Source: an uncultured virus (IMG/VR IMGVR_UViG_3300011725_000001) (Duplodnaviria > Heunggongvirae > Uroviricota > Caudoviricetes). From it: DNA of 64,000 nucleotides. Position 1 is the first letter of the stretch; each line of letters begins with the position of its first letter. The translations under genes and the position numbers were made by a program. The stretch is from the IMG/VR virus record IMGVR_UViG_3300011725_000001, positions 1-64,000 of that record. One strand, written 5' to 3'. Under the pieces are notes generated by a model. That model was not told where the DNA came from. It made no database searches and saw only the letters and a list, made by a program, of their open reading frames with translations. Shown here in pieces: positions 37,598 through 58,600 of this stretch.

Positions 37598-38049
37598 TTG
37601 ATTATCAGAACCTGTTTATTACGGCGATGGCTGCAGCAATGGTGGCGGATCGCTGCGTATTTGCCCGTAAAAAGGTGGAATTGCTGGGGTGCGGTACCGC
37701 CGTGGTGCGCGATAACGCGCTGGCGTTCCCGGTCCGGCTTAACATCGCCTGCGCCGGCAAGCTGGCGGGCGCAAAAATTGAGTACTGGCTGCGCGACAGC
37801 AACGATCCGACGGTGGTTATTTCCGGCAAGCAGCGCACGCTCGACCTCTCGCCAAAAGGCGTGAGCGAGGAATTTTTGCTGATCGACACGCGTTATCTTG
37901 AGCCGGGTGAATGGCTGCTTACCGTGCGCGTGACGCACGGCAACAGCCGCCTGAACCCGCTTTACCGGATCTTCCCGCTGCAGGACACCATTTCCAGAAA
38001 GTACCAGCTGAGCAAGTCAGAGCAGGGGGTATTCAGTGTCGAATCCTAA
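37594..38049 (+). CDS. lydB: Antiholin
   Basis: 151 aa, NPLYRIFP; synteny. Confidence 0.75.
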   Translation: MIDYQNLFITAMAAAMVADRCVFARKKVELLGCGTAVVRDNALAFPVRLNIACAGKLAGAKIEYWLRDSNDPTVVISGKQRTLDLSPKGVSEEFLLIDTRYLEPGEWLLTVRVTHGNSRLNPLYRIFPLQDTISRKYQLSKSEQGVFSVES

Positions 38050-38653
38050 AGGCTACGTGCTGCTGAATTTTGACGAACTCAACGATAAGGGCCTGGCGAA
38101 GCTGAAGAAGGCGATCGCCACCGGCGGCTATGAGATTGCCAAAGTCACCGCCGCCGGCACCGCGCGCAGGAAAGACGGCGTGCCGACCAAAACTTTCAGC
38201 CTCACCGGCATGGACGAGCAGGTTATGACCGTGCAGGTCAATGACAGCGGCGACATTTCCGGCCTGAAGCTGAACGGGAAAAACGTGCCGTTTACCCACG
38301 TCACCACGATCCCTGAGCTCGGGCGCCAGCTGGCCACGCTATTCAGCAAAGGCTCAACGGCTTTTCAGAAATCCCTGGCGCGCAAGATGGCGCGCGCGGC
38401 TGCCACCAGCGATGACACTGCGCAGCCCAAACGCGGCGTGAAATCCTCGGTGCAGCTGCTGGCCGAAGTGCGCCAGCAGCGTGACGCCTATAAGTCAGGC
38501 ATCGCGGAAACCAAAGCGAAGGTGGAGCAGCTGACGCGCAGCGCGGACGACGCGCAGAAAAATGCGGACAGCCTGCAGACTGAGCTTAATCAGGAGCAGG
38601 CACTGACGCGCCAGCTTAAAGAGCAGATCGCCCAACTGGAGGAGACAGCGTAA
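38036..38653 (+). CDS. hdf: Hdf antirestriction/head protein
   Basis: DarA-N-like domain plus coiled coil; synteny. Confidence 0.8.
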   Translation: MSNPKGYVLLNFDELNDKGLAKLKKAIATGGYEIAKVTAAGTARRKDGVPTKTFSLTGMDEQVMTVQVNDSGDISGLKLNGKNVPFTHVTTIPELGRQLATLFSKGSTAFQKSLARKMARAAATSDDTAQPKRGVKSSVQLLAEVRQQRDAYKSGIAETKAKVEQLTRSADDAQKNADSLQTELNQEQALTRQLKEQIAQLEETA

Positions 38654-40839: not shown

Positions 40840-41249
40840 CGTTAACCGCCCTTGAAAAGCTGGATTTAGCCGACCAGCTGGACGAACTGATTATCAAAGC
40901 CCCGACGGTAAAGGGGCTGGACCTTCTGGATCTTAATGACCAGATGGAAGCAATCATGCTGAAGCTGGGTTATGGCGCAGCGCCGGCACCGGCCACCAGC
41001 GCTCCCGATCCGGTACCGGAGCCAGCGCCCGCCCCGGCGCCGGAGCCACAGCCGGACCCTGCTAAAGAGGATCAGCCCGTCCCGGAAGTGGTTAAAGACT
41101 TTCTGGCCGGGAAGTTTACGCATCAGGCGCAGCTGGATTTTGTAGAGACGCTGCGCAAAGTCGGTGACTACATCGGTGTTTACTTGGCGCTGGACGATGC
41201 GAAAGAGCAAACCGCCAGCTGGATAGCCGCCAGCGGCCTCGCAGCTTAA
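40836..41249 (+). CDS. ddrA: DdrA
   Basis: MTLTALEKLDLADQLDEL; synteny. Confidence 0.78.
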   Translation: MTLTALEKLDLADQLDELIIKAPTVKGLDLLDLNDQMEAIMLKLGYGAAPAPATSAPDPVPEPAPAPAPEPQPDPAKEDQPVPEVVKDFLAGKFTHQAQLDFVETLRKVGDYIGVYLALDDAKEQTASWIAASGLAA

Positions 41250-41253
41250 TCAG

Positions 41254-41280
41254 TAACCCCGTTTCGGCGGGGTTTTTTAT
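41254..41280 (+). terminator. Terminator after ddrA
   Basis: aaccccg-tttcgg-cggggttttt. Confidence 0.7.
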
Positions 41281-41293
41281 TACCGGGATCACA

Positions 41294-42670
41294 ATGCTTA
41301 ACGAGAAATTAAAGAGCCTGCTGGGCGACGCTGGCAGCATTTTTGCCCTGATTGGGCTCGTTGGTTCACTGCGCAAAACAGAGACCCAAACAGGACGATC
41401 GTCCTACGTCGTGACCGGCAAAGGTCAGGAAGTGAAAACTGCGTTTAAGGTGGTGGATGCCCGCGACCTGATTATTTCAAACAACCTCGACGGCACCATT
41501 AATCCGGCGTTCCCGGCAGAGCTGCAGCCGCGCGACCGCACGCGCATGACCAGTAAAGTGCAGGTTTCAAAAATTGCGGGCAACCTGCGGCCGGCGAAGC
41601 TGACCGATTCCGGCATGAGCAGCCACGGCGCGCCCATCGTGGGCGCGGATAACGTGGTGGAGTCAGGCAACGGGCGCTCAATGGGGATCACGCGCGCTTA
41701 TGAGCAGGGGCAGGCCGATGAATACCGGCAGTACCTGATTGAGCACGCGAAAGACTACGGCCTGAAGGCGTCGGATATTGCGCAGATGGATATGCCCGTG
41801 CTGGTGCGTGAGCGCCTGACGGACGTTGACCGGGCGCAGTTTGCGAAAGACTCCAACCTCTCCGATCTGCAGGAAATGGCGGCGAGCGAAAAGGCGTTTG
41901 TGGATGCGGAAATGCTCGACGAACGCCTGATGGCCATCTTCAATCCGTCCGATGACGGCAACCTGCTGGCGCGCTCAAATGACGGCTATATCCGGGCATT
42001 CATGAAAGAGATAGGCGACACGGCAACAGCAGGCCTGCTGACCGACGACGGGCGCCCGACAAAGCAGCTGATTGACCGCATTCAGAATGCGATCTTTGCC
42101 CGCGCCTATAAGGATGAACGGCTGGTAAAGCTGGTATCTGAGGAACCCGATCCGGATATGCGCAACATCCTGACGGCGCTCAATACCGCTGCCAGTGAGT
42201 TTGCGCAAATGCAGACGCTCTCCGGAGACGTTCACCGCCAGGCTGTTACCGGGCTGGTGGACGGCGTGCAGTCGGTGAATGGGCTGGATCAGCAGGCGAT
42301 AGCCGCGCTGCAGGAGGCGATTAAGCTGGTGCGCCAGGCGAAGGACAGCGGGCAGGCGATACAGGAAGTGCTGGCGCAGCAGGGGCTTTTTGAAGAGGCC
42401 AGCAAAGAGGCCGAAGCCCTGGCGCTGTTTATCGTGGCCAACAACCGCAGCGCGAAGCGGATCGGCGCAGCGTTTAAAAAGATGGCGCAGAAGATCAACG
42501 ACGAGCTATTACACCAGCAGCAGGCGCTGGGGGATATGTTCGGCGGCGGTGAGCTGACGCTGAATGAAGTGCTGACGGCGGTATCAGGAGAAATTGAGGA
42601 GGAATTTGGCGAGGGAAAGGGGTTAAGTTTCGCCATGTTTGAATCTGTCAGCGCGCCGGCAACGAACTAA
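41294..42670 (+). CDS. ddrB: DdrB, N-terminal ParB-like portion only
   Basis: ELQPRDR, SSHGAPIVG and VESGNGR; 458 aa, about half of P1 DdrB. Confidence 0.85.
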   Translation: MLNEKLKSLLGDAGSIFALIGLVGSLRKTETQTGRSSYVVTGKGQEVKTAFKVVDARDLIISNNLDGTINPAFPAELQPRDRTRMTSKVQVSKIAGNLRPAKLTDSGMSSHGAPIVGADNVVESGNGRSMGITRAYEQGQADEYRQYLIEHAKDYGLKASDIAQMDMPVLVRERLTDVDRAQFAKDSNLSDLQEMAASEKAFVDAEMLDERLMAIFNPSDDGNLLARSNDGYIRAFMKEIGDTATAGLLTDDGRPTKQLIDRIQNAIFARAYKDERLVKLVSEEPDPDMRNILTALNTAASEFAQMQTLSGDVHRQAVTGLVDGVQSVNGLDQQAIAALQEAIKLVRQAKDSGQAIQEVLAQQGLFEEASKEAEALALFIVANNRSAKRIGAAFKKMAQKINDELLHQQQALGDMFGGGELTLNEVLTAVSGEIEEEFGEGKGLSFAMFESVSAPATN

Positions 42671-42828: not shown

Positions 42829-44031
42829 TTAGTGTACCTTCCTATTTTGACGAGATGTTGCATATGTCATCACTACCGCCCCCAGTAGTAACAAACCACT
42901 TAAACCAAATGCACTTCTCCATCCCAGACTGTCGAATGCCAGACCTCCAGCCGTTGAACCAAGCGCAATCGATAGCTGGATCACCGCAACCATGAGGCCA
43001 CCACCCCTCTCTGCATCTTCGGGTAACGCTCGTGCTATCCATGTCCACCATCCTGTTGGCGCAGCCGTCGCAAGTAGCCCCCACAGGCTTAATAATACGG
43101 CAACGGCCCAGATGTGGTGTCCGACCAGCAGTAACGCACCAGTAATCGCGGCCATAAGCAACGGGATCATGATTAAGGTCTTGTAAAATTTGGCGTTCAG
43201 GAATGTTGAGACGATCATTGTGCCGACAAAACCTGCTATGCCTATTGCAAGCAAAATCAGAGAAAGGTTAGAAGGTCCCACTCTGGTGACGCTCTCCAGA
43301 AAGGGGCGCACGTAGGTAAACAAAGCAAACTGTCCCATAAAGAAGAGCCCGCAGGCAAGCATTCCCGTTGGTACGATGGCAACGCTGAACAGACGAAGCA
43401 CAGACCCCTGTGGTTTTTGTGTTTTATCGCTTTCCATTGAAGGCAGGCTGAACCATTGCCAGAAGAACGCAGCTATCGCAAGAGGGACGAGACATAAAAA
43501 GGCCCCACGCCAACCGACCGTTGTCCCCAGATAACTACCAAGCGGCGCAGCCACAACGGTGGCCAGCGCGTTACCGCCGTTAAAAATTGCCAGTGCGCGG
43601 GGAACCTGGTGCTGTGGCACGAGCCGAATGGCGGTTGCAGCCGACATTGACCAGAACCCTCCGATGACGACGCCAATCAGAGCCCTCCCCAGCATATAAA
43701 TCGGATAGTCAGGCGCCATGGTGATAACTAACCCTGATATGGCCATTAAGACCGTTAGCCCAAGCAGAAGATATTTACGATTCAGGTCTCCGGCAATATG
43801 GGAGATAGTCAGACTGGTCAGCACTGCCAGTGCGCCAGAGACGGCAATTCCTTGCCCTGCCAACCCTTCGGTAACGTGCAAATCGCGGGCAATGAGCGTA
43901 AGCAGGCTGACTGGCATAAACTCAGAAGCGATCAGCACAAACACGCAAAGCGTCATGGCAAATACGCCGCTCCAGTATGCATGCTTTTTTTCGTATGATG
44001 GTTTTAGACTTACAGTAGACATTATTAGCAT
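42829..44031 (-). CDS. MFS transporter (NepI/DHA1-like)
   Basis: About 12 TM segments, ASEFMPVSLL, GRALIG, GWRGAF. Confidence 0.93.
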   Translation of the reverse strand: MLIMSTVSLKPSYEKKHAYWSGVFAMTLCVFVLIASEFMPVSLLTLIARDLHVTEGLAGQGIAVSGALAVLTSLTISHIAGDLNRKYLLLGLTVLMAISGLVITMAPDYPIYMLGRALIGVVIGGFWSMSAATAIRLVPQHQVPRALAIFNGGNALATVVAAPLGSYLGTTVGWRGAFLCLVPLAIAAFFWQWFSLPSMESDKTQKPQGSVLRLFSVAIVPTGMLACGLFFMGQFALFTYVRPFLESVTRVGPSNLSLILLAIGIAGFVGTMIVSTFLNAKFYKTLIMIPLLMAAITGALLLVGHHIWAVAVLLSLWGLLATAAPTGWWTWIARALPEDAERGGGLMVAVIQLSIALGSTAGGLAFDSLGWRSAFGLSGLLLLGAVVMTYATSRQNRKVH

Positions 44032-44199
44032 CCCTTAATATCGAACCAGCCAGATTCAGGCGCAGTCGGGTCAGAAGTTATTCAGGGAATAACGACATAA
44101 TAGGTGGGTGAGAATATGGGGCGATGTGACATATTCTGCGTCACACCAGGCAGGTAAAAGCCACCCGTTTATGACAGGTGGCCTGGTAAACCTTTCGGG

Positions 44200-45336
44200 T
44201 TACCTTAAGTTTGCTTTGAAAAATTGCTCAAATTTGGCAAATGGGATCTTACCCGCAACGTTGTCGTACAGATCAACATGGTTTGCCCCAGGGACAATCA
44301 CTAACTCTTTCTCTTTGCTGCCGATTGCCTTAAAGGCATCTTCAGCAAAATAGCGTGAATGGGCTTTTTCGCCGGTCACGATGAGTGTAGGGATAGTAAC
44401 TTCATTGGCGTAACTCAGCAGCGGCATATTCATAAATGACAGCGGCATGGTTGCATTCCAGGCACCGGTTGAGTTGACCGAACGCTCATGGAAACCACGC
44501 GGCATGCGGTAATAATCAAAGAACTCTTTCAATACTGGGTTAGGATTCGCGGGCAGAGTTTCCGGCAGAATACGATCGGAAGCGGTGACGTTGCCCTTCT
44601 CATCAACATAAATGTCATGCCCGCCTGGCGCGAAAGCGCCATTTTCCGCATCCTTCCAGCGCTGCTTGTTCAGATACTGCAATACGGCACGACGATCGGC
44701 AGTGGTATAGCGGTCTTTGCCATCGCCCACGCCATGCCCCATCGCACGGCTCATGTCATACATCACGCTGGTCGCCACCGCCTTGACACGCGTGTCCATC
44801 GCGGCGTCGTTTAAGGCCATGCCGCCCCATCCGCAGATACCGAGCAGCCCGATACGGTTGCGATCCACCTCTTTTTGCAGGCCTAAGAAATCAACCGCCG
44901 CGCTGAAATCCTCGGTGTTGATATCCGGAGATGCGACGTTGCGCGGGTAGCCGCCGCTTTCGCCCGTGTATGAAGGGTCGAAAGCCAGAGTGACAAATCC
45001 CTGTTCAGCCAGCGTCTGCGCATACAGGCCGCTGGATTGCTCTTTCACCGCCCCGAAGGGGCCGCTAACAGCAATAGCTGCCAGCTTGCGATCCCCACGA
45101 TCCTTCGGGATGTAGAGATCCCCGACTAAGGTGATCCCGTATCGGTTCGGAAAGGTCACCTTACGGTGATCAACTTTCGTGCTCTCAGCAAAAGTTTTAT
45201 CCCATTTCTCGACCAGCGAAACGGGCGCGTTCGGATTGGCTGTATCAGCGTAACTCATATTTGTGACTCCACTTAATGATGCGCATAACAACAGGGCGGG
45301 TATCGCAGTTGTCAATTTTTGGGTGAAAGCAGTCAT
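44200..45336 (-). CDS. Alpha/beta hydrolase (YcjY-like) with probable signal peptide
   Basis: GPFGAVKEQ, FDPSYTGESGG, nucleophile elbow GICGWGG, HVDLYD; start at MTAFTQ assumed. Confidence 0.9.
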   Translation of the reverse strand: MTAFTQKLTTAIPALLLCASLSGVTNMSYADTANPNAPVSLVEKWDKTFAESTKVDHRKVTFPNRYGITLVGDLYIPKDRGDRKLAAIAVSGPFGAVKEQSSGLYAQTLAEQGFVTLAFDPSYTGESGGYPRNVASPDINTEDFSAAVDFLGLQKEVDRNRIGLLGICGWGGMALNDAAMDTRVKAVATSVMYDMSRAMGHGVGDGKDRYTTADRRAVLQYLNKQRWKDAENGAFAPGGHDIYVDEKGNVTASDRILPETLPANPNPVLKEFFDYYRMPRGFHERSVNSTGAWNATMPLSFMNMPLLSYANEVTIPTLIVTGEKAHSRYFAEDAFKAIGSKEKELVIVPGANHVDLYDNVAGKIPFAKFEQFFKANLR

Positions 45337-45497
45337 CAAAATCCCCTTCATAAAACGTGCCAGAAACAGGTTTCCTACGGACAACGCTGCTGTGCTTTGT
45401 TGCAATGCGCACATTATAGTTAGCAGAAATAGTACTGATTAGAGGGTGAAAAATGCTAAGATTGATAACATATTGTTCTGAATTGTGATGCGGCAGC

Positions 45498-46394
45498 ATG
45501 GGAAGGATGATGGCGAAACGGGAAAACTATAACGATCTCTATCTGTTTATGCAGGTCGTGCGAGAAGGGAGTTTTACTGCCGCCGCGCAGAGGCTTGGCC
45601 TGGCGCAGTCAGGAATTAGTCGTGCAGTGCGCGAGCTGGAAGAACGACTGGGCGTGCAGCTTCTGGTGCGTACCACGCGCAAGTTATCGCTCACCCATGC
45701 CGGCGAGTTGCTCTATCGAACCGTCGAATCTGGATTTGACGCTTTAGATATGGGGCTTGCCACGCTGGCCCATTATCGCCATACCCCATCGGGTACGGTC
45801 CGTATTAATGCCAGTCAGCACGCCATTGATAAAGTGCTGCTGCCGAAGCTGGCGGTGTTTAAACAACGCTACCCAGATATTCGGCTGGAGCTCATCAGCG
45901 AAAGCCGGTTTGTCGATATTATTGCTGAGCGCTTCGATGCCGGTATACGTCTGGGCTCGGAAGTAGGTAGCGGTATGGTCGCTGTGCGCATTTCGCCCGA
46001 TATGGAGATGGCCGTTGTCGGCACGCCCGAGCACTTTCGTCGCTACGGATTTCCGCAAACTCCCTCCGATTTAGTTATTCATCCCTGCATCGCTTACCAG
46101 TTTGGAGACGGCAGCCTGTATGCATGGGAACTCAATCAAGACGGTAAAAAGATAACCCATCAGCCTCAGGGACAATGGGCCTTTGCTGACAGCTATATGG
46201 AAGCCAAAGCAGCCCGGCTAGGCCTGGGACTGGCTTATGTTCCGGAGGAATTAGTTTCTGATGATATAGAACAGGGGGCGCTGATCAGAGTTTTGCAATG
46301 CTACAGTCAGCGCCTGGAAGGTTCATATATCTATTATCCGCACCGCAATGTGTCACCCGCTCTAAGAGCGGTTATCGATACATTGAGAATTTAA
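45498..46394 (+). CDS. LysR-family regulator, divergent
   Basis: GSFTAAAQRLG...ELEERLGVQLLVRTTRKLSLT HTH plus substrate-binding domain. Confidence 0.95.
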   Translation: MGRMMAKRENYNDLYLFMQVVREGSFTAAAQRLGLAQSGISRAVRELEERLGVQLLVRTTRKLSLTHAGELLYRTVESGFDALDMGLATLAHYRHTPSGTVRINASQHAIDKVLLPKLAVFKQRYPDIRLELISESRFVDIIAERFDAGIRLGSEVGSGMVAVRISPDMEMAVVGTPEHFRRYGFPQTPSDLVIHPCIAYQFGDGSLYAWELNQDGKKITHQPQGQWAFADSYMEAKAARLGLGLAYVPEELVSDDIEQGALIRVLQCYSQRLEGSYIYYPHRNVSPALRAVIDTLRI

Positions 46395-46590: not shown

Positions 46591-47082
46591 ATGGAGCAAT
46601 CCGCAAACCGTAAAGCCTTTGGCGACATGCTGGCGTTCTCAGAAGGCACCAGTACTCACCCATTAACCCGCATGCGTGGCTATGACGTTATCGTGACCGG
46701 GCTGGGCGACAAGCTGGGCGAAATATTCACTGACTTCACCGATCACCCGTTCACAAATCGCAGCCCGAAAAAACTCAATAAGCATGGTCTGGCCTCGACT
46801 GCAGCAGGGCGTTATCAGCAGCTTTACCGCTACTGGCCGGTTTACAAAAAACAGCTGAAACTGCCCGACTTCAGCCCCGTGTCACAGGAGCGCTTGCTTG
46901 ACCAGCTGCTGAAAGAGCAGGGCGCGTATGCCGACGTTCACGCCGGACGAATCCGCACGGCCATTGGCAAAACCAACGATATCTGGGCGTCGCTCACTGG
47001 ATCGCCGTATGGTCAGAAAACGCACGCGCTTGAAACGCTGCTGACTGCCTATCGTGATGCTGGTGGGACAGTTACCGATTAA
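46591..47082 (+). CDS. Lambda-R-type endolysin (lytic transglycosylase)
   Basis: RKAFGDMLAFSEGT, GYDVIV, STAAGRYQ, LPDFSPVSQ, IWASL..SPYGQ. Confidence 0.93.
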   Translation: MEQSANRKAFGDMLAFSEGTSTHPLTRMRGYDVIVTGLGDKLGEIFTDFTDHPFTNRSPKKLNKHGLASTAAGRYQQLYRYWPVYKKQLKLPDFSPVSQERLLDQLLKEQGAYADVHAGRIRTAIGKTNDIWASLTGSPYGQKTHALETLLTAYRDAGGTVTD

Positions 47083-47966
47083 GCGCCTCTGAACCCTTCC
47101 GGGATCGCGTAGTTATCGTGCTTCAGACCGTCGCCGGCAAAATTACCCGTCTGGCGGCGGCTTTCTGGTTTTCGGCCTGCAGCTGCTTTGGGCTTAAACG
47201 TGGATTTGATGTAGCCGTACACCTTGTGCATCAGCTGGCCGTTGCGCTGGTATGCCTCTGCGCGGCGCTGTTTGTCTGCTGCTGCTGATCCTGCTTCCAA
47301 GCTTTGCAGTGATTCCTGATAAATCCCGAATTTTTTCTCTGGCGCTGGTGGCTCTGACGCAATCTCTTTCGATTCCGAAATTGCTGACTCACTGTATTGT
47401 GTTTCTCTTGTTCTGGAGAGATCTCTTACTTCTTGTTGGTCATTTTGACCAGGGGTAGCCTGTTCATTCTGACCAGGGGTAGCGAGGGTGAAATTTAATT
47501 TTGAGAAGGTGTCAGCAACGATTCTCCGGACGAGACTCTGACGCCCCGCAGGCTGAAGATTAGCCGCTTTCAGTTCAGCCAGACTCGCCTGTACAAAAGC
47601 CAGTGCTTTGCTGGTGAACGTGTACTTGCTGGGCTTACTCCATTTGTGGTTATTTTTGCAGCGCTGCTCCTCATGAGTGAGGATGCCGAGTTTAACCGCC
47701 AGGCGATAAGCGCGCTGTACGGTAGAAACGCTCACGCCTGCTTCTTCTGCCAGGGTGCTGAGGGATTTGATGATCTCAAATCTGGACGTTGAACACGCCA
47801 GATTACACGCGAATTTCAGTACGCGAGTGAGTGATTTTGGAAGAGGTGAAAGCTCAATAACGTGGGTGAAATCATACCCGGTAATTCGTACAGGGTTTTG
47901 CTTATTATCTGAGCAATGCAAGGGAAAAGAGTTGCCGTGATCGGCGTTTTTAGCTACTATCTTCAC
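47079..47966 (-). CDS. repL: Lytic replication initiator
   Basis: HTH LAEEAGVSVSTVQRAY, TPGQN repeats, C-terminal IPEGFRG as in P1 RepL. Confidence 0.9.
   Translation of the reverse strand: MKIVAKNADHGNSFPLHCSDNKQNPVRITGYDFTHVIELSPLPKSLTRVLKFACNLACSTSRFEIIKSLSTLAEEAGVSVSTVQRAYRLAVKLGILTHEEQRCKNNHKWSKPSKYTFTSKALAFVQASLAELKAANLQPAGRQSLVRRIVADTFSKLNFTLATPGQNEQATPGQNDQQEVRDLSRTRETQYSESAISESKEIASEPPAPEKKFGIYQESLQSLEAGSAAADKQRRAEAYQRNGQLMHKVYGYIKSTFKPKAAAGRKPESRRQTGNFAGDGLKHDNYAIPEGFRGA
47441..47483. repeat. Probable oriL direct repeats within repL
   Basis: CATT(T/C)TGACCAGGGGTAGC at 47441-47459 and 47465-47483. P1 oriL lies inside repL. Confidence 0.65.
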
Positions 47967-48243: not shown

Positions 48244-49248
48244 TTATTTTACTGAATTTATCCATAAAAGCGGGTTACATTCCGTCGCTTTTTGACGCGT
48301 CTGCGGAAGCGAATGTTTTTGCTGCGCGCCAATAGGAAGCGTAGCCGTAACGTTTGATCCGATGGATTCCAGCATGGCGGCGACGATCTGCGCATCTTCC
48401 GGTGTGTCCATCCGGCACAGCGCGGCAGTCTGCTCTTTACTGATAAACAGCGGCAGGCTGGCCAGCGCCTCTTTCATAACTTTACGGCGGGCTTTTGCCA
48501 CGTTGCCGGCGTTCTCAATCATCAGATTGGCGCTGCGCAGCCGATCCTCCAGCTCCAGTCGCTTGCCGTGCTCGATGTGCAGCGCCGATTCCAGCAAAGA
48601 TGCATCCCCCGATTCAAACATTGCTGCCTGGCCGCGCATACTTTCAAAGTGCTGAAAAATGTCCGCTGCCTGATTCTCCGAATACCCTTTTTCCACCAGC
48701 CCTGCGCAAATCATACTTTCACGATCGCTGGCTGATTCCAGCATGGCTGATGGATGCTCCAGGCTGATGTAATTGGGAACGGTCACATAGTCGAACCCGT
48801 GAAAGCTGGTGACTTTTGACACGGCGTTATCGTCGCCGCCGGTCGCCCATGACCAGCCGCCGGCGCGTGAACGGCTCATGCCGTCTACGATGTTGCCGGG
48901 TTCAGTATCAAGAATTTCCTGAACATGGGTGACCACGCCGTTATCGTCCAGGCTTACCTCAAGCGTCCGGTTAGAAGGCACGTTTTCAATCGTCACCGGC
49001 TTGCCGTCCACCATGACCACAGCAAATTCCGGCAGGTTCAGACGTCCGGTTTTCGCATAGTAGGCGGCGCGTCGCCCGTGGCCGTAGTAGCCGAACATTT
49101 CCCCCAGCTGAATACGTTCCTGCGTTTCCGGGCTGCTGAACGTTTCCCGGACCGAGCGCAGCAGGTAATTGCGATCATTTTGCGGCGTGAAACGACGAAT
49201 TTTATCAATGAGTGAAAAACGATCCGTTACCGTGCGGAGTGCTTTCAT
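48244..49248 (-). CDS. pro: Prohead protease
   Basis: GYYGHGRR, GGWSW and FHGFDYVTVPNY (H/S/D protease pattern); RBS gagga before ATG 49248. Confidence 0.88.
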   Translation of the reverse strand: MKALRTVTDRFSLIDKIRRFTPQNDRNYLLRSVRETFSSPETQERIQLGEMFGYYGHGRRAAYYAKTGRLNLPEFAVVMVDGKPVTIENVPSNRTLEVSLDDNGVVTHVQEILDTEPGNIVDGMSRSRAGGWSWATGGDDNAVSKVTSFHGFDYVTVPNYISLEHPSAMLESASDRESMICAGLVEKGYSENQAADIFQHFESMRGQAAMFESGDASLLESALHIEHGKRLELEDRLRSANLMIENAGNVAKARRKVMKEALASLPLFISKEQTAALCRMDTPEDAQIVAAMLESIGSNVTATLPIGAQQKHSLPQTRQKATECNPLLWINSVK

Positions 49249-49317
49249 GTTGTCCTCATAACTACAGGTGATGCCCCGCAAAGCGGCGGCAGCGCTGGCG
49301 GTTGCCTGCGCGGACTG

Positions 49318-49340
49318 ATGGTAGGAAGGTTGTAATTTGC
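49318..49340 (-). promoter_or_regulatory. Putative late promoter (pro)
   Basis: GCAAATTACAACC-N4-TACCAT on the minus strand. Confidence 0.72.
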
Positions 49341-49542
49341 GTGGGTAACTTTTCTTGATTCATGCGTGGATCTAATGACCAGTGGATAATTTCACATTAG
49401 ACATATTGAATTTATCAGCGCGGCGGATATAGTGTGCGCGCCGCTGCAAAACAGTGGCCGGGATTGGAACCCTGAAAAAGCATGAGAGCTGGCACACAGT
49501 GCCTTCGGCGCTACCACGTCCGGAAAATTCCGGGCGTATCTA

Positions 49543-49620
49543 TGGTGGCGTTGGCGGGGCTACCTTCGGGTAGGCCGGTTTTCTTGTGCACCGGTAGTTC
49601 CAACCCTGTCAACGTCACCA
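49543..49620 (+). ncRNA. c4: C4 antisense RNA (P1 c4/P4 CI type)
   Basis: Outer stem TGGTGGCGTTGGCGGGG/CCCTGTCAACGTCACCA, inner hairpins CTACC-TTCG-GGTAG and CCGGT-TTTCTTGTGC-ACCGG, bulge GTTCCAA, with complementary targets on both sides. Confidence 0.88.
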
Positions 49621-49674
49621 CCCGGAGATTGGAACCTCCTGTCGTGACGCTTCTCAAAGCACAGGGAGCACACC

Positions 49675-49932
49675 ATGTCTGATATCCCTCACGCGCCACC
49701 CCCTGCGGCGTATCTGTACTGCCAGGCTATTTCAATTATCTGCGAGAACGCTGGTGTTATTTGCCGCCGCGCACTGTGGGGCAACACTCCCCGTCACGTA
49801 TCTTTCCAGGCTGACGCGCAGGATCTGCTGAGTCTCATCTTCATGAACGAGTCCGGCAGGCTGTCTGTTTACGTTCCGTCGCCTGCAGATCTGACTTCCG
49901 AGGACTGGCAGATTATCCGGGTTACAGAGTGA
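49675..49932 (+). CDS. DUF2829/Tad2-like small protein
   Basis: YCQAI...GVICRRALWG...YVPSPADLTSEDWQII fits the F.eA....G..v.R.gW / w.psq.D.laeDW family pattern, by eye. Confidence 0.65.
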   Translation: MSDIPHAPPPAAYLYCQAISIICENAGVICRRALWGNTPRHVSFQADAQDLLSLIFMNESGRLSVYVPSPADLTSEDWQIIRVTE

Positions 49933-50471
49933 CAGCTGGAGTCAGAAGTTTATCTAATCAGATGGTCTGACCACACAACGGCTTTGCTTACAGATTGTTG
50001 CCAGAGTGGATTATCATCTTTGTATGGAAAAAGTGAAGCGGCAAATATTCTGCTCATAAGCCTGCGTTTAAGTCAGAAATACTGAGGGAGTGAGCCCGTG
50101 GCGCGAGAGGGTAAATAAAGCACTCAGAAAGCGTCTGGTTTTTTTCAGCGGGGGTTTTCCTAATACTTCCGGTTACTACTGCGCGATAATGGTAACCGAA
50201 GCGCGAAAAATCATACGCTTACAGATTGTGTACCATTAAAAGAGACATTTTGATCCCCCTCTTTAAGGGCTGGACATTAATTTAGACCTGAAAAAGTGCT
50301 TCTTTAAATTAAATTAATGATGATACTTTTAGTTAACGCAAATTAGTTAATGTGTTGACGAAGTTAAATAAAAATCACGTAGCTTTTGCGGAAACTTTTC
50401 ACGCGTAAATTTACGCTGAAAAGTTTCATGTTCAACATGGAAGTTTTATGCACGCAGCAAGAGGATGAAGC

Positions 50472-50780
50472 ATGTACAAGGCTATGAAGTTTTATGTCAG
50501 CGACCATTTCCCGTCCGGGTTGCTCCTGCACCGCGCAGACTGCCCGCAGCTGCCGACCATTGAGGAGCGCACCTTTATCGGCAGCTGCTATACGCTGAAT
50601 CAGGCGCTGACCGTAGCCGGAATACACTTTTCGGGTGTTAAGGTTTGTCCGTTCTGTATTACCAGGCCGGACGAACAAGAAGGGCAGAATGAATACCTGG
50701 TACTTAATACCCCGAAAAAACCTAAAAAACCTGCCGAAAAAAAGATATTCAGACCGGTAAAGCATCTGGATAACAATTAA
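50472..50780 (+). CDS. Hypothetical small Zn-binding protein
   Basis: LHRADC...CPFC (H-C-C-C), RBS gagga. Confidence 0.65.
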   Translation: MYKAMKFYVSDHFPSGLLLHRADCPQLPTIEERTFIGSCYTLNQALTVAGIHFSGVKVCPFCITRPDEQEGQNEYLVLNTPKKPKKPAEKKIFRPVKHLDNN

Positions 50781-50914
50781 AGGTAGGGCAAGTAATCATC
50801 CCGGAGCGCAGATATATTTTCCTTCAGTTTTTATATCTGCTTTCGATGACGGATTTCATCAAGCCGCACACTCCCCTGTGAATTTGTGTGCGGCCTTTTT
50901 ATTTTTTCCGGAAA

Positions 50915-52624
50915 TTAACTTTCCGGCCTGACAACGTACCGGGCAAATGCCACCAGCTCCTCATGCGTCCAGCTGGCCGGATCGTCGCCGTCGGGTGCGG
51001 ACTCGTTCATCATGCTGCCGTTCTCTTCCTCCTGCGCATCGGCTTTGTCCCGGCTTTTGCTGAACTCCGCCAGCATTTTATCCAGAGTGCCGCCGTCCAT
51101 CTTCAGCTGATCGCTAAACAGGTAGCGCATGAACGTGTCATTCTCCGCCAGCTTGTTGTTAGCCTGCATCGCGTCCATAACCTGCACCATGAGCGTAATG
51201 AAGTTGGCGCGCGCGTCCATTTCGCGGCTTTCTTCTTCCTGAATCGCCGTGTTCATGGAGTTAAACTGTACAACGTAGGGCCGATCATTCACCGGGTAAA
51301 CCTTGCCGTATTTGAACGCCAGGTGAATATCTATGAGCCGGTAAATCATCTCCTGCGCACCCTGGCGCAGCCACTGCGCCCGCAGCGCCGCCTGTATGGC
51401 CGTCTGAATCCAGCCGCCTTCCCCCAGCCCGCCGGCCATCTGATCCGCCCAGCCCAGCATCGTTGAATCAATTCCGAGCGCGGCGCACAGCTGGCGCAGG
51501 TGAAACATCACGTCCTCGATGCCGGTAATGTCCGCGGGTATCGACTGCGTATCAATCGTGATCCCGTTTTTACCATCGCCCATAACCGGGATTACATGGT
51601 TCATCACGGTTGGCATGGTGTTCCCGTTCACCGCCTTTTTCTGCAGCGCCTCGCCGTGGCGTTTAAGCGTCTGCGATACGGTTCTGGTGTAGTTGGCACC
51701 CACAACCGGATCGAGTGAGTTGGTGGTCAGCGCAATCAGGCGGTCGATTTTGGCAGCATTGTAGCGCGTGGCTTTCAGCGCATTCAGTGCGCCCGTCAGG
51801 TTGAGGAACGGCTCATAAGCGTGCGCGAGGAAGCTGGTACCGTAGTTCTGCGTCTCCGCAACTTCCTTATCCTCCTCTTCACTCAGCAGCGAATAGCCCC
51901 GGTTGCCGGACGTTATGGGCTGCACGTTACGCGTGGGCGTCCAGTACGGGTTTTTCATGGGTACCAGAGACCAGGGCGAGGAAAGCGTGCGGGTATGCGT
52001 ATCGGGTGACAGCACGTAATCCCCGCCGAAGCCCACCAGCTGATCGCCCTTATAAAATTCCTGCACAAAGTAGGGCAGCGAGTAATAGCTGTTTTCCAGG
52101 CTGGTGATCCCCCTGCCAGTCCGGGCATAGGGACGCACATAAGCGACGCCAAAAATCGCCATGGTCATAGCCAGTGACGGCAGGTGTCTGTTAATCATCG
52201 CGCCCAAATCATCCTGCAGCTCTTTTGCCCGCGTCACACCTTCTTTGTCTGACGGGTCCACCGGAGCAATGCAGAACGCCAGCCCGGTTTTTTTGTCCGG
52301 TGCGAGCGCGTGGCCAATGTGGATATTCAGCGCGGCGGAGCAGGTCGGGCTGTTGGCCATTTCCTCAAGAATGGCGTAACGCTGCAGCCGGTCCAGCGGC
52401 AGCTCTGCGCCGAGGTAGAGGCTGTCGCCGGCCGTGGTCATTTCACCTGCCTTACCTTCCTGATACGCCAGTGCTGCCAGCCCGGAACGGGACACCACGA
52501 CGTTTTGTCCGTTACTCCACGGCAAACTTTCAGGCGCGTCAGCATCTGCGCCCCTGAATGCCTGCCTGAGCGCGCTCAATACGGAAAGCGTTTTATTTTT
52601 CTTTGCCAAAATATACCTCTGCAA
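50915..52624 (-). CDS. prt: Portal protein
   Basis: 569 aa, LPLDRLQRY, YGTSFL, ITGIEDVMFHL; divergent from darB as in P1. Confidence 0.9.
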   Translation of the reverse strand: MQRYILAKKNKTLSVLSALRQAFRGADADAPESLPWSNGQNVVVSRSGLAALAYQEGKAGEMTTAGDSLYLGAELPLDRLQRYAILEEMANSPTCSAALNIHIGHALAPDKKTGLAFCIAPVDPSDKEGVTRAKELQDDLGAMINRHLPSLAMTMAIFGVAYVRPYARTGRGITSLENSYYSLPYFVQEFYKGDQLVGFGGDYVLSPDTHTRTLSSPWSLVPMKNPYWTPTRNVQPITSGNRGYSLLSEEEDKEVAETQNYGTSFLAHAYEPFLNLTGALNALKATRYNAAKIDRLIALTTNSLDPVVGANYTRTVSQTLKRHGEALQKKAVNGNTMPTVMNHVIPVMGDGKNGITIDTQSIPADITGIEDVMFHLRQLCAALGIDSTMLGWADQMAGGLGEGGWIQTAIQAALRAQWLRQGAQEMIYRLIDIHLAFKYGKVYPVNDRPYVVQFNSMNTAIQEEESREMDARANFITLMVQVMDAMQANNKLAENDTFMRYLFSDQLKMDGGTLDKMLAEFSKSRDKADAQEEENGSMMNESAPDGDDPASWTHEELVAFARYVVRPES

Positions 52625-52684: not shown

Positions 52685-55600
52685 TTGGTGGAAAACTCAG
52701 CAAATAAGGCCATACAGGAAGCGGGGACGGTCGAAGATCTGATCAGCCTGGTGATGCGTCTGCACAAACAGCGAACCGTTGTGGCGTTTGGCGTGACAAA
52801 ACGGGAAGGGGTAAGCCTTCAGCGCGGGCGCCGCACCGCAAATGATAACGCAGTGAGTCTGCTTAACTCGCTGCCGGCGGGTTTTGACGGGAACAAACTC
52901 ACTGATGAACAGCGCCGGATTCTGGCTGGGTACAGCGGCGAGGGTGGTCTGGAGGGCGGCGGCGGCAGTCAGTACGAATATTACACGCCGCCGTTTATGG
53001 CGGAGGGAATATGGGATCTGTTTGCGGACTACGGCATTACCGGCGGTCATATGCTGGAGCCGTCCGCCGGCACGGGCGTATTTCAGGAAACCAAGCCCGC
53101 CGGCGCAATGATGACGTCCGCGGAGATCTCCGACACGTCAGGACGTATTAACCAGCTGCTGCACCCGGAAGATGACGTGCGCATGGGCGCGTTTGAGAAG
53201 CTGGCCGCGTCGGTACCGGACAATAGCTATGACCACGCCGTCGGCAACGTGCCGTTTGGCGACTCGCGCACGGGCTTTGCCGAGCTCGATCCGGCCTATC
53301 GGGATGAAACCAACGTCGGGCATTACTTCGTGATGCGCACCATCGACAAGGTGAAATACGGCGGGCTGGTGGTGCTGGTGGTGCCAAACGGCATGACCGA
53401 CGGCGGCGGCGCTAACAAAAAGCTGCGCGATCGCGTTTCCCGCGTGGCGGAGTTCCTGGGCGCACACCGCATGCCGTCCGGCACGTTTGCCGAGAGCGGT
53501 ACCGCAACGGTGGTGGATGTGTGGGTGCTGCGAAAGCACACCGAGGCGCTGACGCAGCTGGTGCATGACAGCGATGAACAGTCACTTGAGGCGGCAAGCG
53601 TATTGTGGCCAACGTTTATCCGGGGCAAGTGGTTTGAAACCGAGGGGCGGCGCTTCGTTCACGGCGAAACCGAGCGGTCTGACTTCAATAACATCCTGGT
53701 GGTCAAAAAAGATGGCCAGCTGACCAACGCGGCGATGAAAGCCGCGCTGTCGCGTCGCTTTGACAGCCGCATCGACTGGGATCGGCTGGGTACGCCTGCT
53801 GCCGTCTGGCAGTCGCCGGTAGAGGGTGATAAGCGGCTTATGGCCGGCGTCTGGCACACCTACGACGGCACGCGGTTTATTAAGGATTCCACCACGGCAT
53901 CAAGCGGGATCGACGCGAAGCAGTTCGGTGCCGCCACGTTTGGCGAACTGCAGACGAAAACGCGCACGATTAACGGCATGCTTTCGCTGGACAGCCGCGC
54001 CCTGTACGCGGCCAGCGTGGAATATCCGCAGCTGTTTGACGATCGCATTCACGCGGCCATTCGCTTTGCGATGCAGCAGAAGCCGGGTCACCGCTGGCGC
54101 GTTATGCGCGCATCCATCATCGGCCTGCGCATCAACGACGCGCTCGATACACAGATGCTGGGTGGCGACGCCAGCGGCATTATCGCTGACGCCGCGCGCC
54201 TGGTGAGTGAGGAAGTCGGGCAGTACGGCACGCCGAAAGGCCTGAAGCTGGCCGGTCTCTCTGATACGAGCGCTAAAGGCTGGCTGAGTTTTCAGGCCAA
54301 CGTCAGCCGCGAAGGGGATTTGTCCGCGCTGCTGAACGGAACCATTGACCGCAGCGAGGCGGTGGCGGTGGACTTTGCCAGCCCGGAGCAGGTGGTATCG
54401 CACCTTTTCAGCGACGTGGATCTGGTACCGGTGGCGCTGGCCGCTTTCCGCGCCGCGTTTAAAGGCGAACTGCCGGAAGATGACGAGGCGCTACTGGCGC
54501 ACCTGGCGACCTTCCCGGAGATTGCGCTCGACGGCAACGGCAACATCATGCCGCTGGCGCGCGCCACAACCGGCAACGTGCGCGGCAAGGTGTCCCGTCT
54601 GGCGGCGCTGATTAACGACGCGCCGGACGGGCCGGTTAAGGCTAACTACGTCCGCCAGCTGGAAACGATCAACGAGAAGCGCAACCACACGCCGATTGAA
54701 GATATTACGGTCAACCTTAACGCCCGCTGGCTGGATCGCCGGCTGATTAAAGAGTTCCTGATTGACCAGGGTTTTGACGACTTTAAGTACACGCAGGATC
54801 TGGAAAACGAAAACGGCTACCTGACCGCGGAGGATAATTACGCGGGTAAAGACGGCGTATTTTCCGGCTACCAGGTGCGCTCCGTCACTGGTAAAGGTGG
54901 TGTGACTGAATTTAAGCGCGCCAGCTACAAAGACGGCTTCTACAACCAGCTCGAAAACTACCTGAACGGCGTGAAGCCGCGCGGCGTGAACGCTAACGTC
55001 TACCTGAAGCGCATCAGCGGCCTGGAGGCGCAGTTTAACCACTGGCTGCGCACGCATCCGGACGTTGAATCGGTTGTCAGCGACTACAACGACGCGTTTA
55101 ACGGCTACGTGCCGTTTGAGCATTCATCCTCGTCCCTGCAGCTGCAGCAGATCAGCGGCAAGCGCATACCGCTGAGCTACCAGAACGCCGAAGTGCGCCG
55201 CCTGTCGGAAGATGGCCGGGGCATTATGGGATTCGGTACCGGGCTGGGTAAAACCACAACCGCGCTGGCGCTGGAGGCCTATAACTACGAGGTGGGCCGC
55301 AGCAAGCGTACCGTGTACGTCGTGCCTAAAGCCGTGCTGCAGAACTGGTATCACGAAGCCCACGGTTTCTACAGCGCAGAGGCGTTTGAGAAAATCCTGT
55401 TTGTTGGCCTGGACGAAGTGCGCGGCGATGACGGCCAGATCATGCAGGCGCCGGAGCGCGACGAAAACAACGAGCCGAAGCTGGATAAAGATGGCCAGCC
55501 GGTCATGCGCAACGTGGTAAAAGAGTCCGCTGCCGCAACCGTGCTTGAACGCATGAACATGATCCCGGTCTCCAACTACCGCGCCGTGGTGATGACCAAA

Positions 55601-58600
55601 GAGCAGTTTGGCGATATCCCGATGCGCCCGGAGACGATTGAAGAAAACTCCAGCCAGGCAGTCTTTAACCAGATTGAGAATGGCCGCACGGATCTGATGA
55701 AGTCCACGCACCGCGCCGCCACGTCCCGCAACAAACTCCGCGATAAAGCCGCCGATACCGGCACGAAGAAAAAGAGCCAGATCCCCTACTTTGAGGACAT
55801 GCACTTTGACAGCGTGATCGCAGACGAAGGCCATAACTACCGCAACTCGCACAGCGCCGGCCGTGAAGCTGGCCAGCTGGCTTACCTGCCGAATCCGTCC
55901 GTCTCCAAAACAGCCCGTGATATGGCCGTAAAAAGCCAGTACATGATGAAAAAGTACAACGGGCGCGGGGTGGTGATGCTGACCGCAACGCCGCTGGTTA
56001 ACTCTCCGATCGACGCATTCAACATGCTCTCCCACGTCGTGTCGCTGGAAGAGTGGAAGGCGATGGGGATTCTGACGCCGGATGACTTTGTGCGGGTATT
56101 CGGGGAAACCGACACCGTAACCGTGCAGAAAATTTCCGGCGAGCTGGAGGATAAGCAGGGGCTGGTGGGCTTTAAAAACCTTGATGGCCTGCGCGGCATT
56201 TTCCACCGCTGGACGACGCTTAAATCTGCTGCTGACGTGAAAGACAGCGTGAAAATCCCCGGTCTGGACGAGAAAACCGTGGGCGTGCCGATGACGCGCG
56301 ATCAGCAGGTGCTCTATGAGGAGCTGCGCCTGCGTGCCAGCCGCATCGGGCAGAAAGAGAGCGTGCAGGATAACGGCGACGGCACCGTGTCCATCGTGCA
56401 GAACGATGATGACTTCATTTTCTCCGTGATCCGCGACATGGATAAGGTGGTGATTGACCCGGATCTGTACCGCTCCGCTATCACGTTCCGCTTCCGCGAA
56501 GAGGATTTTGAAAAGGTGAAGCAGGTTGCACGCGCGCTTCCGGGCGAAGCGGGCGGCGTGCAGCTGGCGGGCGACGAAGAAGAAGTGGCGGAGGACGCAG
56601 AGAGCGGCCTGACCGACACGCGCACCAGCAAGGTTGTCAAAACCACGCTGAAGAACCGCGGGGGCGTCGTGGAGCTGGTGGTAAGCGACACGCTGGAGCA
56701 GCAGGTGCTGGACGCGATCGCTGCCGCCGGCATTGATATGCAGCACGTCTCGCACCCGGTCCCGCCGAAGTACGCCGCGCTGATAGAAAACCTCAAAGCT
56801 GGCCTGCCGGACGGTAAGCAGATCATCTTCATGGATGAAAAGACGCAGCACAACAAACTGCGCCGTATCATCGCAAGCGCCCTGGGCCTGCAGGAGCAGC
56901 AGATAGGCATCATCAACGCCACAACGGTAGCGAAAGCATCCGGCGTGAAGGTGAAGCCCGTGAAGAAGCCCGCAGAGCCGGTGGAGAAAGCGGACGGCAG
57001 CTTTAAGGAGGGCGCGTGGGATAAGTACTATCAGGAGCTGGCACGCTATGAGGACTATCAGGCCGCGCTGAATGACGCCTCGCTTGCCGGGATGGAGGGG
57101 ATCGCCGCCGACTACAACGAAGGCCGCACGCCGATCATCATCTGCAACAAAAAGGCCGAGGTGGGGATCAACCTGCACAAAGGCACGGCTGATACACACC
57201 ATCTTACGCTGCCCTGGACGCCGGCCAGTATTGACCAGCGCAACGGGCGCGGCGCCCGCGTGGGCTCGGAGCGCGACAGCATGCGCGTGCATTACTACTG
57301 CGGCAAGGGTTCGTTTGACGAGTTCCGCCTGGAGACGCTGCAGCGCAAGAAAAACTGGATCAACGACGTCATGAAGTCTGACGTGTCCAGCATGAAAAAC
57401 GGCGATGTGGAATCCAAAGAGGAGCAGAGCCTGCTGCTGGCCGCAAATCCGGAAGAACGCCGCGCGCGCGTGGACGCACAGCTGAAGGCTAAACGCGAAG
57501 CGGAGCGCCAGCAGGCTGAGCGCGAAGCCGCCGCCGCGCTGGATATCTACCTGAAAGCGAGCGTTGCCGCCGCCACGCCGACAGAGGTACTGGAAGCGAA
57601 TATCGCTGACCTGTCAGCCACCTTTGATGAAATCAACGGCAGCATTGACGGGCTGCGTGCAGACGTCACAGACGCCGAAACGGCCTATAACATTGAGTTC
57701 GAAAGAGACGGCAAACGGTCTGCGGACAACTGGCGCGGGCAGGATCGCCGTAACGCGCGTGCCGCGCTCAAAGAAGGCCTGGCGAAGCAGAAGAAGCTGG
57801 AGCAAGAGCTGAACGGCGCACGCAAGGCGCTGACGCGCTCTAAAAGCGCCGCCAGCACCATTAAGCGCTCACGCGGTGAGGTTGAGCGTGCCATTCTGTC
57901 CGGCGCGCTGGAAGTCGATCCTGACGTGCTGCGCGCGCCAGAGCAGTACATGAAGCTGGCCGGCGGGCAGCTGGTGCGCATCGGGGCGTGCTATGAAATC
58001 TGGATGGATGACGATAAGCAGGAAAAGGGCGTATTCCAGATCCGCAAATTCTTCCCGGAAAAAGGCACGGTTGAGGTTGAGCTGATCCGCAAGCCGCTTC
58101 GCTGTTATACCAGGCCGGACATTGGCGGATTCGCGGAAATGCCGTCGGATCTGGTTGGCAATCGTGTGGAAATCACGACTGACCAGGCGAAAGCGCTGCA
58201 GAAGGCGGCAAAAGGTATCGATCCGGTCTCGCTGGCCGACACGCTGAGCCGCGCGGACTTCTACGCCGCCATTCGCGCCGGCGTGATGAACGTGAAGGCG
58301 GACGCCTGGATGTACCGCGACGCAGCCGGCGAGCTGAAGCATGAATATATTCACGCGGGCATTACCGTCCGGGACAGCATTAAAGCGGAGGACTGGCTCT
58401 ATCCGGATCACGGCGACGAGCAGCTGAAGCGCGAGCTGTATCAGTACAGCCTGACCAGAAACCTGTATTCAGTGCAGGCCGTATTTAAGGCTGTATTTGG
58501 CGGTAACTACAACACGGCAATGCAGGGCTACGGCGAACAGGCGGGCATGGAGGACGTCGTTAAGGTGTTCAGCCAGCTGGTAGCGGAATTTGAGGCAGGC

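Follow-up and report, generated by a model that had tools for sequence, protein, structure and literature searches.

A C4 antisense RNA module preceding a Tad2-like gene in a P1/D6-type plasmid-prophage

Introduction

What does a C4 antisense RNA control in an element in which no antirepressor is recognised? The question is raised by a module at 49406-49932 (+ strand) of a 64,000-nucleotide (nt) stretch of DNA, here called the window, which comprises positions 1 to 64,000 of the uncultured virus record IMGVR_UViG_3300011725_000001 (IMG/VR; Caudoviricetes). In this module a leader with a C4 RNA is followed by an open reading frame (ORF) of 85 amino acids (aa) at 49675-49932 (+), which encodes a Tad2-fold protein (Tad2L) and is apparently the sole gene under C4 control. 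An earlier note, made by a model from the letters of the sequence and referred to below as the original prediction, had read the locus as a secondary-immunity RNA switch reused for an anti-defence sponge.

The full virus record from which the window is taken measures 93,023 bp and has direct terminal repeats. Among public sequences, plasmids of 87-95 kb come closest to it (five of the six records are from Pantoea), and the top two plasmid matches have 96.6% identity across 49300-50900. Searches with blastp and Pfam detected homologues of P1 RepA, Par, tail, sheath and capsid genes, DarA/DarB, Lpa, PacA/B-like proteins, RepL and a C1-like repressor, the latter with 24% identity to P1 C1 (blastp). 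Judged by gene content, the element is a plasmid-prophage of the P1/D6 type.

In modules of the P1/P7 type the C4 RNA is freed from the leader by RNase P, and blocked translation leads to Rho-dependent polarity. Tad2 proteins are homotetramers with pockets between the protomers; they bind gcADPR or other immune nucleotides and rescue phages from the Thoeris system. The usual view of anti-defence sponges is that they belong to the early genes of lytic phages. The interest of the locus is that a temperate plasmid-prophage appears to have a well-understood antisense-RNA immunity switch whose one cargo is a Tad2-family gene. If true, anti-defence expression gated by a lysogeny RNA would be new, as would a Tad2 fold with a role inside an immunity circuit. 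The locus also indicates that an immI module of the P1 type can exist without a recognisable antirepressor. Our answer to the question, to which we give about even weight, is that the locus is a secondary-immunity (immI) module of the P1/D6 type with one cargo gene left, whose Tad2-fold product probably binds an immune nucleotide.

The C4 RNA, its target sites and its promoter

The Rfam model of the C4 antisense RNA (RF01695) matches positions 49538-49625 (+) over its full length (model positions 1-87) with a score of 85.4 bits (cut-off 45, E 2.1e-15). No other Rfam family reaches gathering level in the window. The mature RNA probably extends from about 49543 to 49620. Two of its segments, the b′ loop (49580-49589) and the a′ single strand GTTCCAA (49597-49603), have complementary partners on both sides of the RNA. 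Upstream are a1, TTGGAAC (49464-49470, +), and b1, GCATGAGAG (49480-49488, +); downstream are a2, TTGGAAC (49629-49635, +), and b2, GCACAGGGAG (49659-49668, +). The a-type sites lie in the two copies of an exact repeat, GATTGGAACC (49462-49471 and 49627-49636), each complementary to the GTTCCAA of C4. The b′ hairpin loop, UUUUCUUGUGC, is predicted to form 9 bp with 49480-49488 (−10.6 kcal/mol) and 10 bp with 49659-49668 (−13.5 kcal/mol). The latter duplex would mask the GGGAG Shine-Dalgarno contained in b2, 7-11 nt 5′ of the ATG at 49675. Across the 93-kb element the two-part (a+b) target pattern is confined to these two places.

A sigma-70-type promoter, TTGAAT-N16-TATAGT, is placed at 49406-49433 (+) with 9 of 12 consensus matches. 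The consensus scan found two sites against 2.0 expected in shuffled sequence, which equals chance, and the promoter call therefore rests on conservation: the −35 shows no variation and the −10 is retained in 14 of the 15 distinct relatives, while the spacer between them varies. The distance from the promoter to a1 is 31 nt, versus 32 nt for the P1 promoter P1c4. Measured from the −10, the positions of a1, b1, a2, b2 and the start codon are within a few nt of those annotated in the P1 record; the C4 start is ∼10 nt nearer to the −10 than in that record. The original prediction had named this promoter, a complete C4 RNA, complementary targets on both sides of it and an overlap of the last target with the ribosome-binding site of the ORF at 49675, and all four hold up: the promoter is present and conserved, the covariance model is matched in full, the predicted duplexes comprise 7 bp (a-type) and 9-10 bp (b-type), and b2 covers the GGGAG.

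Two further ORFs in this region, one of 66 aa (49482-49682, +) and one of 62 aa (49511-49699, −), overlap C4 and its targets. They are conserved because the RNA is conserved, and were therefore rejected as genes.

Just 5′ of the −35 there is an inverted repeat, TCTAATG/CATTAGA (49371-49401, 17 nt between the arms), a second copy of which is absent from the window; it is a candidate repressor site. A conserved 18-mer 5′ of the −35 likewise occurs once in the window.

Conservation and covariation of the switch

Relatives of the 85-aa protein on viral contigs gave 26 loci: 23 in alignment A3, two more in alignment A4 and that of the most distant member (P0015). The count leaves out L110-L112, with matches of 14-26 residues, and two proteins (P0019 and P0021) without a usable locus. 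In all 26 loci a C4 RNA scoring 77-85 bits ends about 50 nt before the start of the Tad2-like homologue, and the wiring holds in L109, where the homologue is only 30% identical. A survey of what lies downstream of c4 in relatives had been proposed along with the original prediction; the Tad2-like homologue is there in 26 of 26 viral loci, with compensatory changes of loop and target. Three Pantoea plasmids have the same arrangement, with C4 scores in the same 77-85-bit range.

The 15 distinct leader sequences carry loops of two types. The type-1 loop, CUUGUGC, pairs with b1 GCAUGAG and b2 GCACA(A/G)G, and the type-2 loop, CUCGUAC, with GUACGAG at both b1 and b2; in the relatives with loop CTCCTCGTAC, b1 is changed to GTACGAGGAG. 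Loop/target specificity types also exist between P1 and P7. We tabulated the 17 intermolecular pairs of a′/a2 and b′/b2 in the 15 sequences: 98% of the 255 cells hold standard pairs, versus 35-49% when the partners are slid by 1-3 columns. Compensatory double changes (UA↔CG and GC↔AU) are observed at two b′/b2 pairs, in five sequences, and b2 follows the loop type in 14 of the 15. Predicted energies of cognate b′/b2 duplexes range from −13.4 to −18.3 kcal/mol. The type-2 loop gives −17 to −19 kcal/mol with its own targets and −5 to −7.5 with foreign ones; the type-1 loop discriminates less because of G-U pairs. The switch thus appears to be under selection.

A natural recombinant was found in the plasmid contig of a Pantoea genome (L040, locus 1351-1658), in which a type-2 C4 and b1 are combined with a type-1 a2/b2 and gene; the recombination joint is between C4 and a2.

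Contigs assembled from RNA-seq (four runs) include one of 201 nt inside the ORF and one of 270 nt that spans 49457-49654 and runs into the ORF of a relative, each from one library. Two libraries gave a 98-kb contig of a relative, so that DNA carry-over is not excluded; since such contigs show no level, start or strand, they are no evidence on expression either way.

In the mechanism that we propose, transcription from the one promoter would yield an RNA with a1/b1, C4, a2/b2 and the 85-aa ORF in that order, and C4 would be excised from the leader, as in P1. Its a′ (GUUCCAA) and b′ (UUUCUUGUGC) would then pair with a2 and b2 of further transcripts and hide the Shine-Dalgarno, so that translation of the ORF would depend on C4 being scarce or outnumbered, right after the element has entered or in a surge of operon transcription. 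Up to processing, the a1/b1 copy probably holds the C4 loops in cis. It is, in our view, very likely that translation of the 85-aa ORF is gated by C4. C4 processing, the timing of expression, the oligomeric state and the ligand are what we infer beyond that; the ‘short early burst, then silence’ of the original prediction would be plausible by analogy to P1.

Cargo of the module

The 85-aa ORF matches a single Pfam family, Tad2-like PF11195 (DUF2829), with 27.7 bits against a cut-off of 25; relatives score 26.6-30.4 bits. An exhaustive HMMER search returned 21 proteins, 13 short relatives (including the ORF's own 99%-identical representative) and eight long ones. The long proteins were rejected as multi-repeat artefacts, because Pfam showed two of them to be repeat proteins (ankyrin, CHB_HEX_C). 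Kinship with ankyrins was discarded as well, with phmmer matches to DARPins at E 0.08-2 and no Ank family found by Pfam in the 85-aa ORF. Alignment A2 was made of the window protein and 12 short relatives; PF11195 is matched by 13 of its 13 members. When the A2 profile was compared with the sequences of the PDB, the four best matches were Tad2 chains (E 0.023-0.069). An AlphaFold model built from 25 sequences has a mean predicted local distance difference test (pLDDT) score of 81.9, and Foldseek with this model gave 12 matches at E≤0.001, all of them Tad2. It supersedes a first model (13 sequences, pLDDT 66.8), for which Foldseek returned Tad2 at E of at least 0.02. The order of secondary structure, a helix and then a beta sheet, is that of the Tad2 fold as described in the part of Yirmiya et al. 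(10.1101/2023.05.01.538930) available to us. The Tad2/DUF2829 identity suspected from the letters alone is thereby upheld.

The same part of that paper lists W25, N26, W73 and D79 as ligand contacts of SPO1 Tad2, further T78, I63 and T65, and D67, H71 and S76 as water-coordinating residues. We mapped seven of these positions to Tad2L through the alignment of the A2 profile with Tad2 chains by hidden Markov model (HMM), a weak alignment by which four are retained or have conservative replacements, while three are changed. W25 corresponds to W35, W73 to Y66 (Y/F in the family), S76 to S69 (S/T) and D79 to D72 (D/E); the changed ones are N26 (G36), H71 (S64) and T78 (A71). Conservation within the family is among the highest at W35, the aromatic residue at 66, S/T69 and D/E72. 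The ligand pocket thus looks partly conserved. Like SPO1 gp34.65, Myroides ModTad2, SptTad2 and HgmTad2/AcrIIA7, the protein would, by the weak alignment, keep the aromatic, Ser and Asp positions of the pocket; unlike them, it has an invariant C-R-R motif (C30, R31 and R32) and His41, which are specific to the Pantoea family, its identity to them is only 15-20%, and its gene stands under an antisense-RNA switch in a temperate plasmid-prophage. Signals bound by Tad2 relatives differ widely, according to the accessible part of a 2025 preprint (10.1101/2025.08.24.671296).

Neither megablast nor tblastn yielded a match in the phage database, and a word-index protein search with the 85-aa protein returned its own cluster only. 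In the literature that we searched there was no link between C4 RNA and Tad2; the supplementary tables of Tad2 homologues (10.1101/2023.05.01.538930 and 10.1101/2025.08.24.671296) were outside this search and might list the family. Citron and Schuster 1990 is among the references of PMC2864571.

Genes downstream of C4 and the relation to phage D6

With all ORFs of the half of P1 that holds immI and c1, blastp found no homologues of icd, ant1/2 or kilA in the element. Of its 113 non-overlapping ORFs, 83 were scanned with Pfam, and none showed an ANT, KilA-N, Bro-N, Rha or AntA domain; the other 30 ORFs are homologues of P1 structural or replication genes or had been scanned earlier. That no ant or kilA follows the switch, as the original prediction had it, agrees with both searches. 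The 85-aa ORF has no similarity to P1 Icd, and a fusion of the icd′-′tad2 kind was rejected, the N-terminus being unlike that of P1 or D6 Icd. In several relatives the portal gene follows ∼55-65 nt after the Tad2-like gene, and their operon therefore holds nothing else.

A C4 RNA is present in 19 of 151 sampled Enterobacterales genomes. We ran Pfam on the ORFs downstream of 31 C4 loci; one of these belongs to a Pantoea metagenome-assembled genome and the other 30 to the sample. Six loci have an antirepressor-type domain downstream (Rha in three, Bro-N in two and AntA in one), nine have genes of P4-like satellites (DUF5375, primase, HTH_35, Derepression, AlpA), two have ankyrin-repeat genes and 13 have nothing recognisable; a Tad2-like gene was found at one locus, on the Pantoea plasmid only. 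C4 RNAs are therefore wired to varied cargo, and the Tad2-like wiring is confined, in this sample, to the Pantoea plasmid lineage. One Enterobacterales genome (G049) carries two C4 RNAs (L067:1643-2047 and L069:807-1502), each directly 5′ of an ankyrin-repeat gene.

The module resembles immI of P1 and P7 in that promoter, decoy sites, C4, targets and start codon come in the same order with near-same spacing, and in the position of b2 on the ribosome-binding site. It differs in its cargo, a Tad2-fold protein where icd, ant1/ant2 and kilA were not found, and in its place: P1 immI adjoins sim/kilA/repL, whereas the Pantoea module is between pro and prt. It may also differ with respect to a C1 operator, which was not recognised at the promoter; a 12-mer enrichment scan of the element gave GC-rich coding words only, and the P1 operator consensus had one site with four mismatches in the element, far from the promoter.

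A closer parallel is offered by phage D6, with the order prt, pro, repL, c4, icd, a gene for a 235-aa Rha/Roi-like ‘Ant’, the 65-aa orf17, then lyz and darB. The C4 RNA of D6 scores 69.6 bits and its c4-a1b1 55.9 bits. Aligned to the profile of the Pantoea family by hhalign, D6 orf17 gives E 7.7e-5 and a probability of 62% over 64 columns, end to end, including the CRRxxW and terminal DW motifs; on PF11195 it is weak, with 15.2 bits. Homology of the Tad2-like family to orf17 is, by these alignments, moderately supported. The prt-pro-repL-lyz-darB neighbourhood is common to D6 and the Pantoea element, and with a relative of orf17 in the same place the Pantoea operon looks like an operon of the D6 type reduced to its last gene. 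Unlike the Pantoea module, D6 keeps icd and the antirepressor-like gene ahead of orf17, which is shorter than the Pantoea gene and starts by overlap with the stop of ant (its start codon begins on the last base of ant), not at a ribosome-binding site masked by C4. The simplest history would be that icd-ant was lost from a D6-type operon, or else gained in D6; a fresh capture of an anti-defence gene by the RNA switch seems less likely. Thus, of the claim that the switch was ‘reused’ for a sponge, one part stands, a C4 switch with a Tad2-family gene as its sole downstream target; the new capture is not supported, since D6 already ends a C4-controlled operon with orf17, a probable relative.

A gated anti-defence sponge?

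The likeliest activity of the protein would be the binding of a small nucleotide signal of host immunity, e.g. an isomer of cyclic ADP-ribose or a cyclic nucleotide. That the protein acts as an anti-defence sponge is a claim that we hold slightly on the doubtful side of balance.

Several observations speak against the picture of a C4-gated sponge. On the side of the RNA, the c4-a1b1 model of Rfam (RF03163), a check suggested with the original prediction, failed to reach its cut-off of 46.7 (41.0 bits at 49427-49478), and a sub-threshold isrK match overlaps the same stretch. In the recombinant L040 the b′/b2 duplex is weak (predicted −7.5 kcal/mol), so that strict pairing of loop and target is not always kept; given this duplex, the L040 element may express its Tad2-like gene constitutively. 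On the side of the protein, G36, A71 and S64 stand, by the weak alignment, where SPO1 Tad2 has the contacts N26, T78 and H71. The element also encodes a second protein with a Tad2-like domain, outside the window at 66072-66650 (L007:2072-2647, +) and not beside C4; this 192-aa protein scores 43.3 bits on PF11195 (residues 108-191). Its counterpart in G153 has 97% identity, and those of four other relatives have 56-60%. With a better-scoring Tad2-like protein in the same element, the 85-aa protein may do something else. The D6 relative, orf17, is the end of an antirepressor operon. As to the defences that a sponge would counter, signalling systems are uncommon in the sample of the host genus (61 genomes), with ThsB_TIR in three and CBASS SMODS in five. 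Finally, when a lysogen is induced, a sponge already silenced by accumulated C4 would hardly help.

Alternative explanations

The alternative that survives best, possible in our view and rather unlikely, gives the Tad2-fold protein a place in the immunity switch itself, as its effector or an indispensable component, antagonising or modulating the C1-like repressor and possibly responding to a bound nucleotide. The c4 and Tad2-like genes would then suffice for a minimal immI, to which the Rha-type ‘Ant’ of D6 would be an accessory. Such a role would fit an element that has retained the C4 switch and a C1-like repressor, yet in which the blastp and Pfam searches found no antirepressor, and it would fit D6, whose c4-icd-ant operon ends in a coupled homologue with both conserved motifs. 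A Tad2-like domain is, on the other hand, missing by profile from other genes linked to C4: hhalign against A2 gave <1% probability for Tad2-like tails in P1 Ant1, three Rha-type proteins and one protein without a family.

Alleles bear on this alternative in both directions. In 13 elements the portal protein is 93-100% identical, pro 77-100% and repL 62-100%, and the Tad2-like protein is 43-59% identical between three groups; the portal is 92-98% identical across elements whose Tad2-like proteins are 43-53% identical. The C1-like repressor forms three groups, with 42-47% and 61-64% identity between groups, and these match the three deepest groupings seen for the Tad2-like protein in these elements. 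This covariation is not specific to C1, as RepA, Par, a helix-turn-helix (HTH) gene and a block at 60-62 kb behave in the same way. Two near-isogenic elements, G000 and G153, share 77 genes at ≥70% coverage, of which 12 have <70% identity: RepA, ParM and its partner (ParR), C1 and a small neighbour, the HTH gene, five genes at 60-62 kb and the Tad2-like gene. Among the divergent genes, C1, RepA, ParM/ParR and the Tad2-like gene are mostly specificity determinants, as a part in the C1 circuit would suggest. Within C1 group C the coupling breaks down; in G157 and G158 the C1 proteins are 100% identical, but the Tad2-like proteins are 76% identical and the C4 loops differ in type. The Tad2-like gene would accordingly be counted with the replaced ‘specificity’ genes, not linked to C1 alone. 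As one of the most divergent shared genes it fits an arms-race gene, and the allele pattern as a whole would be compatible with an arms-race gene and with an immunity-specificity gene.

A stronger form of this alternative, which we find unlikely, is that the secondary-immunity switch of the D6/Pantoea lineage has as its true output the Tad2-fold protein, a nucleotide-binding module acting on the C1-type repressor circuit. If true, immune or stress nucleotides of the host would feed into the lysis-lysogeny decision, and the Pantoea elements would be the minimal form, without a classical antirepressor. The system is compact (about 530 bp) and comes with natural specificity variants and one mismatched recombinant, and both the sponge and the role in the C1 circuit are therefore directly testable.

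We consider it improbable that the locus is an addiction or growth-control module in the style of a type I toxin-antitoxin (TA) system, with a protein harmful in excess like P1 Icd and C4 as the RNA antidote. Three homologues are indeed labelled ‘MW1434 family type I TA system toxin’ by the NCBI pipeline; the label goes back to a listing that is purely bioinformatic in the part of the source available (PMC6266405), and the current NCBIfam library has no match to the 85-aa ORF. As in type I TA systems, a small RNA would block translation of a small protein at its ribosome-binding site, but C4 shares both strand and transcript with the gene instead of being encoded opposite to it. The cargo, moreover, is modelled as a soluble alpha/beta Tad2 fold, not a membrane peptide, and its highest 19-residue Kyte-Doolittle mean, 1.29, leaves it without a membrane-like segment. 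Although the gene occupies the place of icd, a cell-division inhibitor by annotation of the P1 record, its product resembles the Icd of neither P1 nor D6, and the element already has Phd/Doc-like, HicB-like and PrlF-like modules.

Least credible is a C4 that acts mainly elsewhere, for instance on superinfecting relatives in trans or on c1-like mRNA, with the ORF as a passenger under incidental control. In its favour, 10 of 10 elements, drawn from three allele groups, have a 7-nt a-type site, UUGGAA(C/U), 6-13 nt 5′ of the c1-like start (76829-76840, −, in this element, outside the window; loci L071-L075, L101, L102, L105 and L107), and two C4 specificity types are what heteroimmunity between relatives would predict. 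Against it, the c1 site may be a plain ribosome-binding site and has no conserved b-type partner beside it, frame and motifs of the ORF are preserved in 25 alleles with identities as low as 29-30%, and b2 tracks the loop in 14 of the 15 distinct sequences.

Genomic neighbourhood

The module is preceded by lyz (46591-47082, +), a RepL homologue (47079-47966, −; blastp to P1 RepL with 27% identity, E 5.7e-18) and pro, the head-processing protease (48244-49281, −; ‘head processing protein’ in the plasmid annotation). This repL/pro flank is common to the loci of all 25 relatives. Downstream are the portal gene prt (50915-52624, −), which is convergent with the module and carries a portal annotation in relatives, and darB (52685-59557, +).

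Between the Tad2-like gene and prt there is a variable accessory slot (49933-50914) with an ORF of 102 aa (50472-50780, +). The slot is missing in those relatives where the portal gene directly follows; in others it holds a 159-aa or other ORF of no known family. In two lineages (L032:2862-5257 and L109:3384-5783) it contains an ORF of 511-513 aa and then one of 284-285 aa, a pair that looks like a defence system; the larger ORF of L032 is an AAA_21/ABC-type ATPase by Pfam, and the pair of L109 is known by ORF size alone.

Among repeated words of the element, 12-mers that include GCTGGTGG, the core of E. coli Chi, or its complement come first, with about 20 sites at ≤1 mismatch in a count made without a shuffled control. 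Genes for a major facilitator superfamily (MFS) transporter, an alpha/beta hydrolase and a LysR regulator (42829-46394 of the window) have no counterpart in five complete relatives and look like a cargo insertion specific to this element. A P1-type anti-restriction set is spread over 38036-42670 and the darB region (52685-59557), with two DarA_N-containing proteins, a ddrB-ParB protein and a DarB-like methyltransferase/helicase of 2290 aa.

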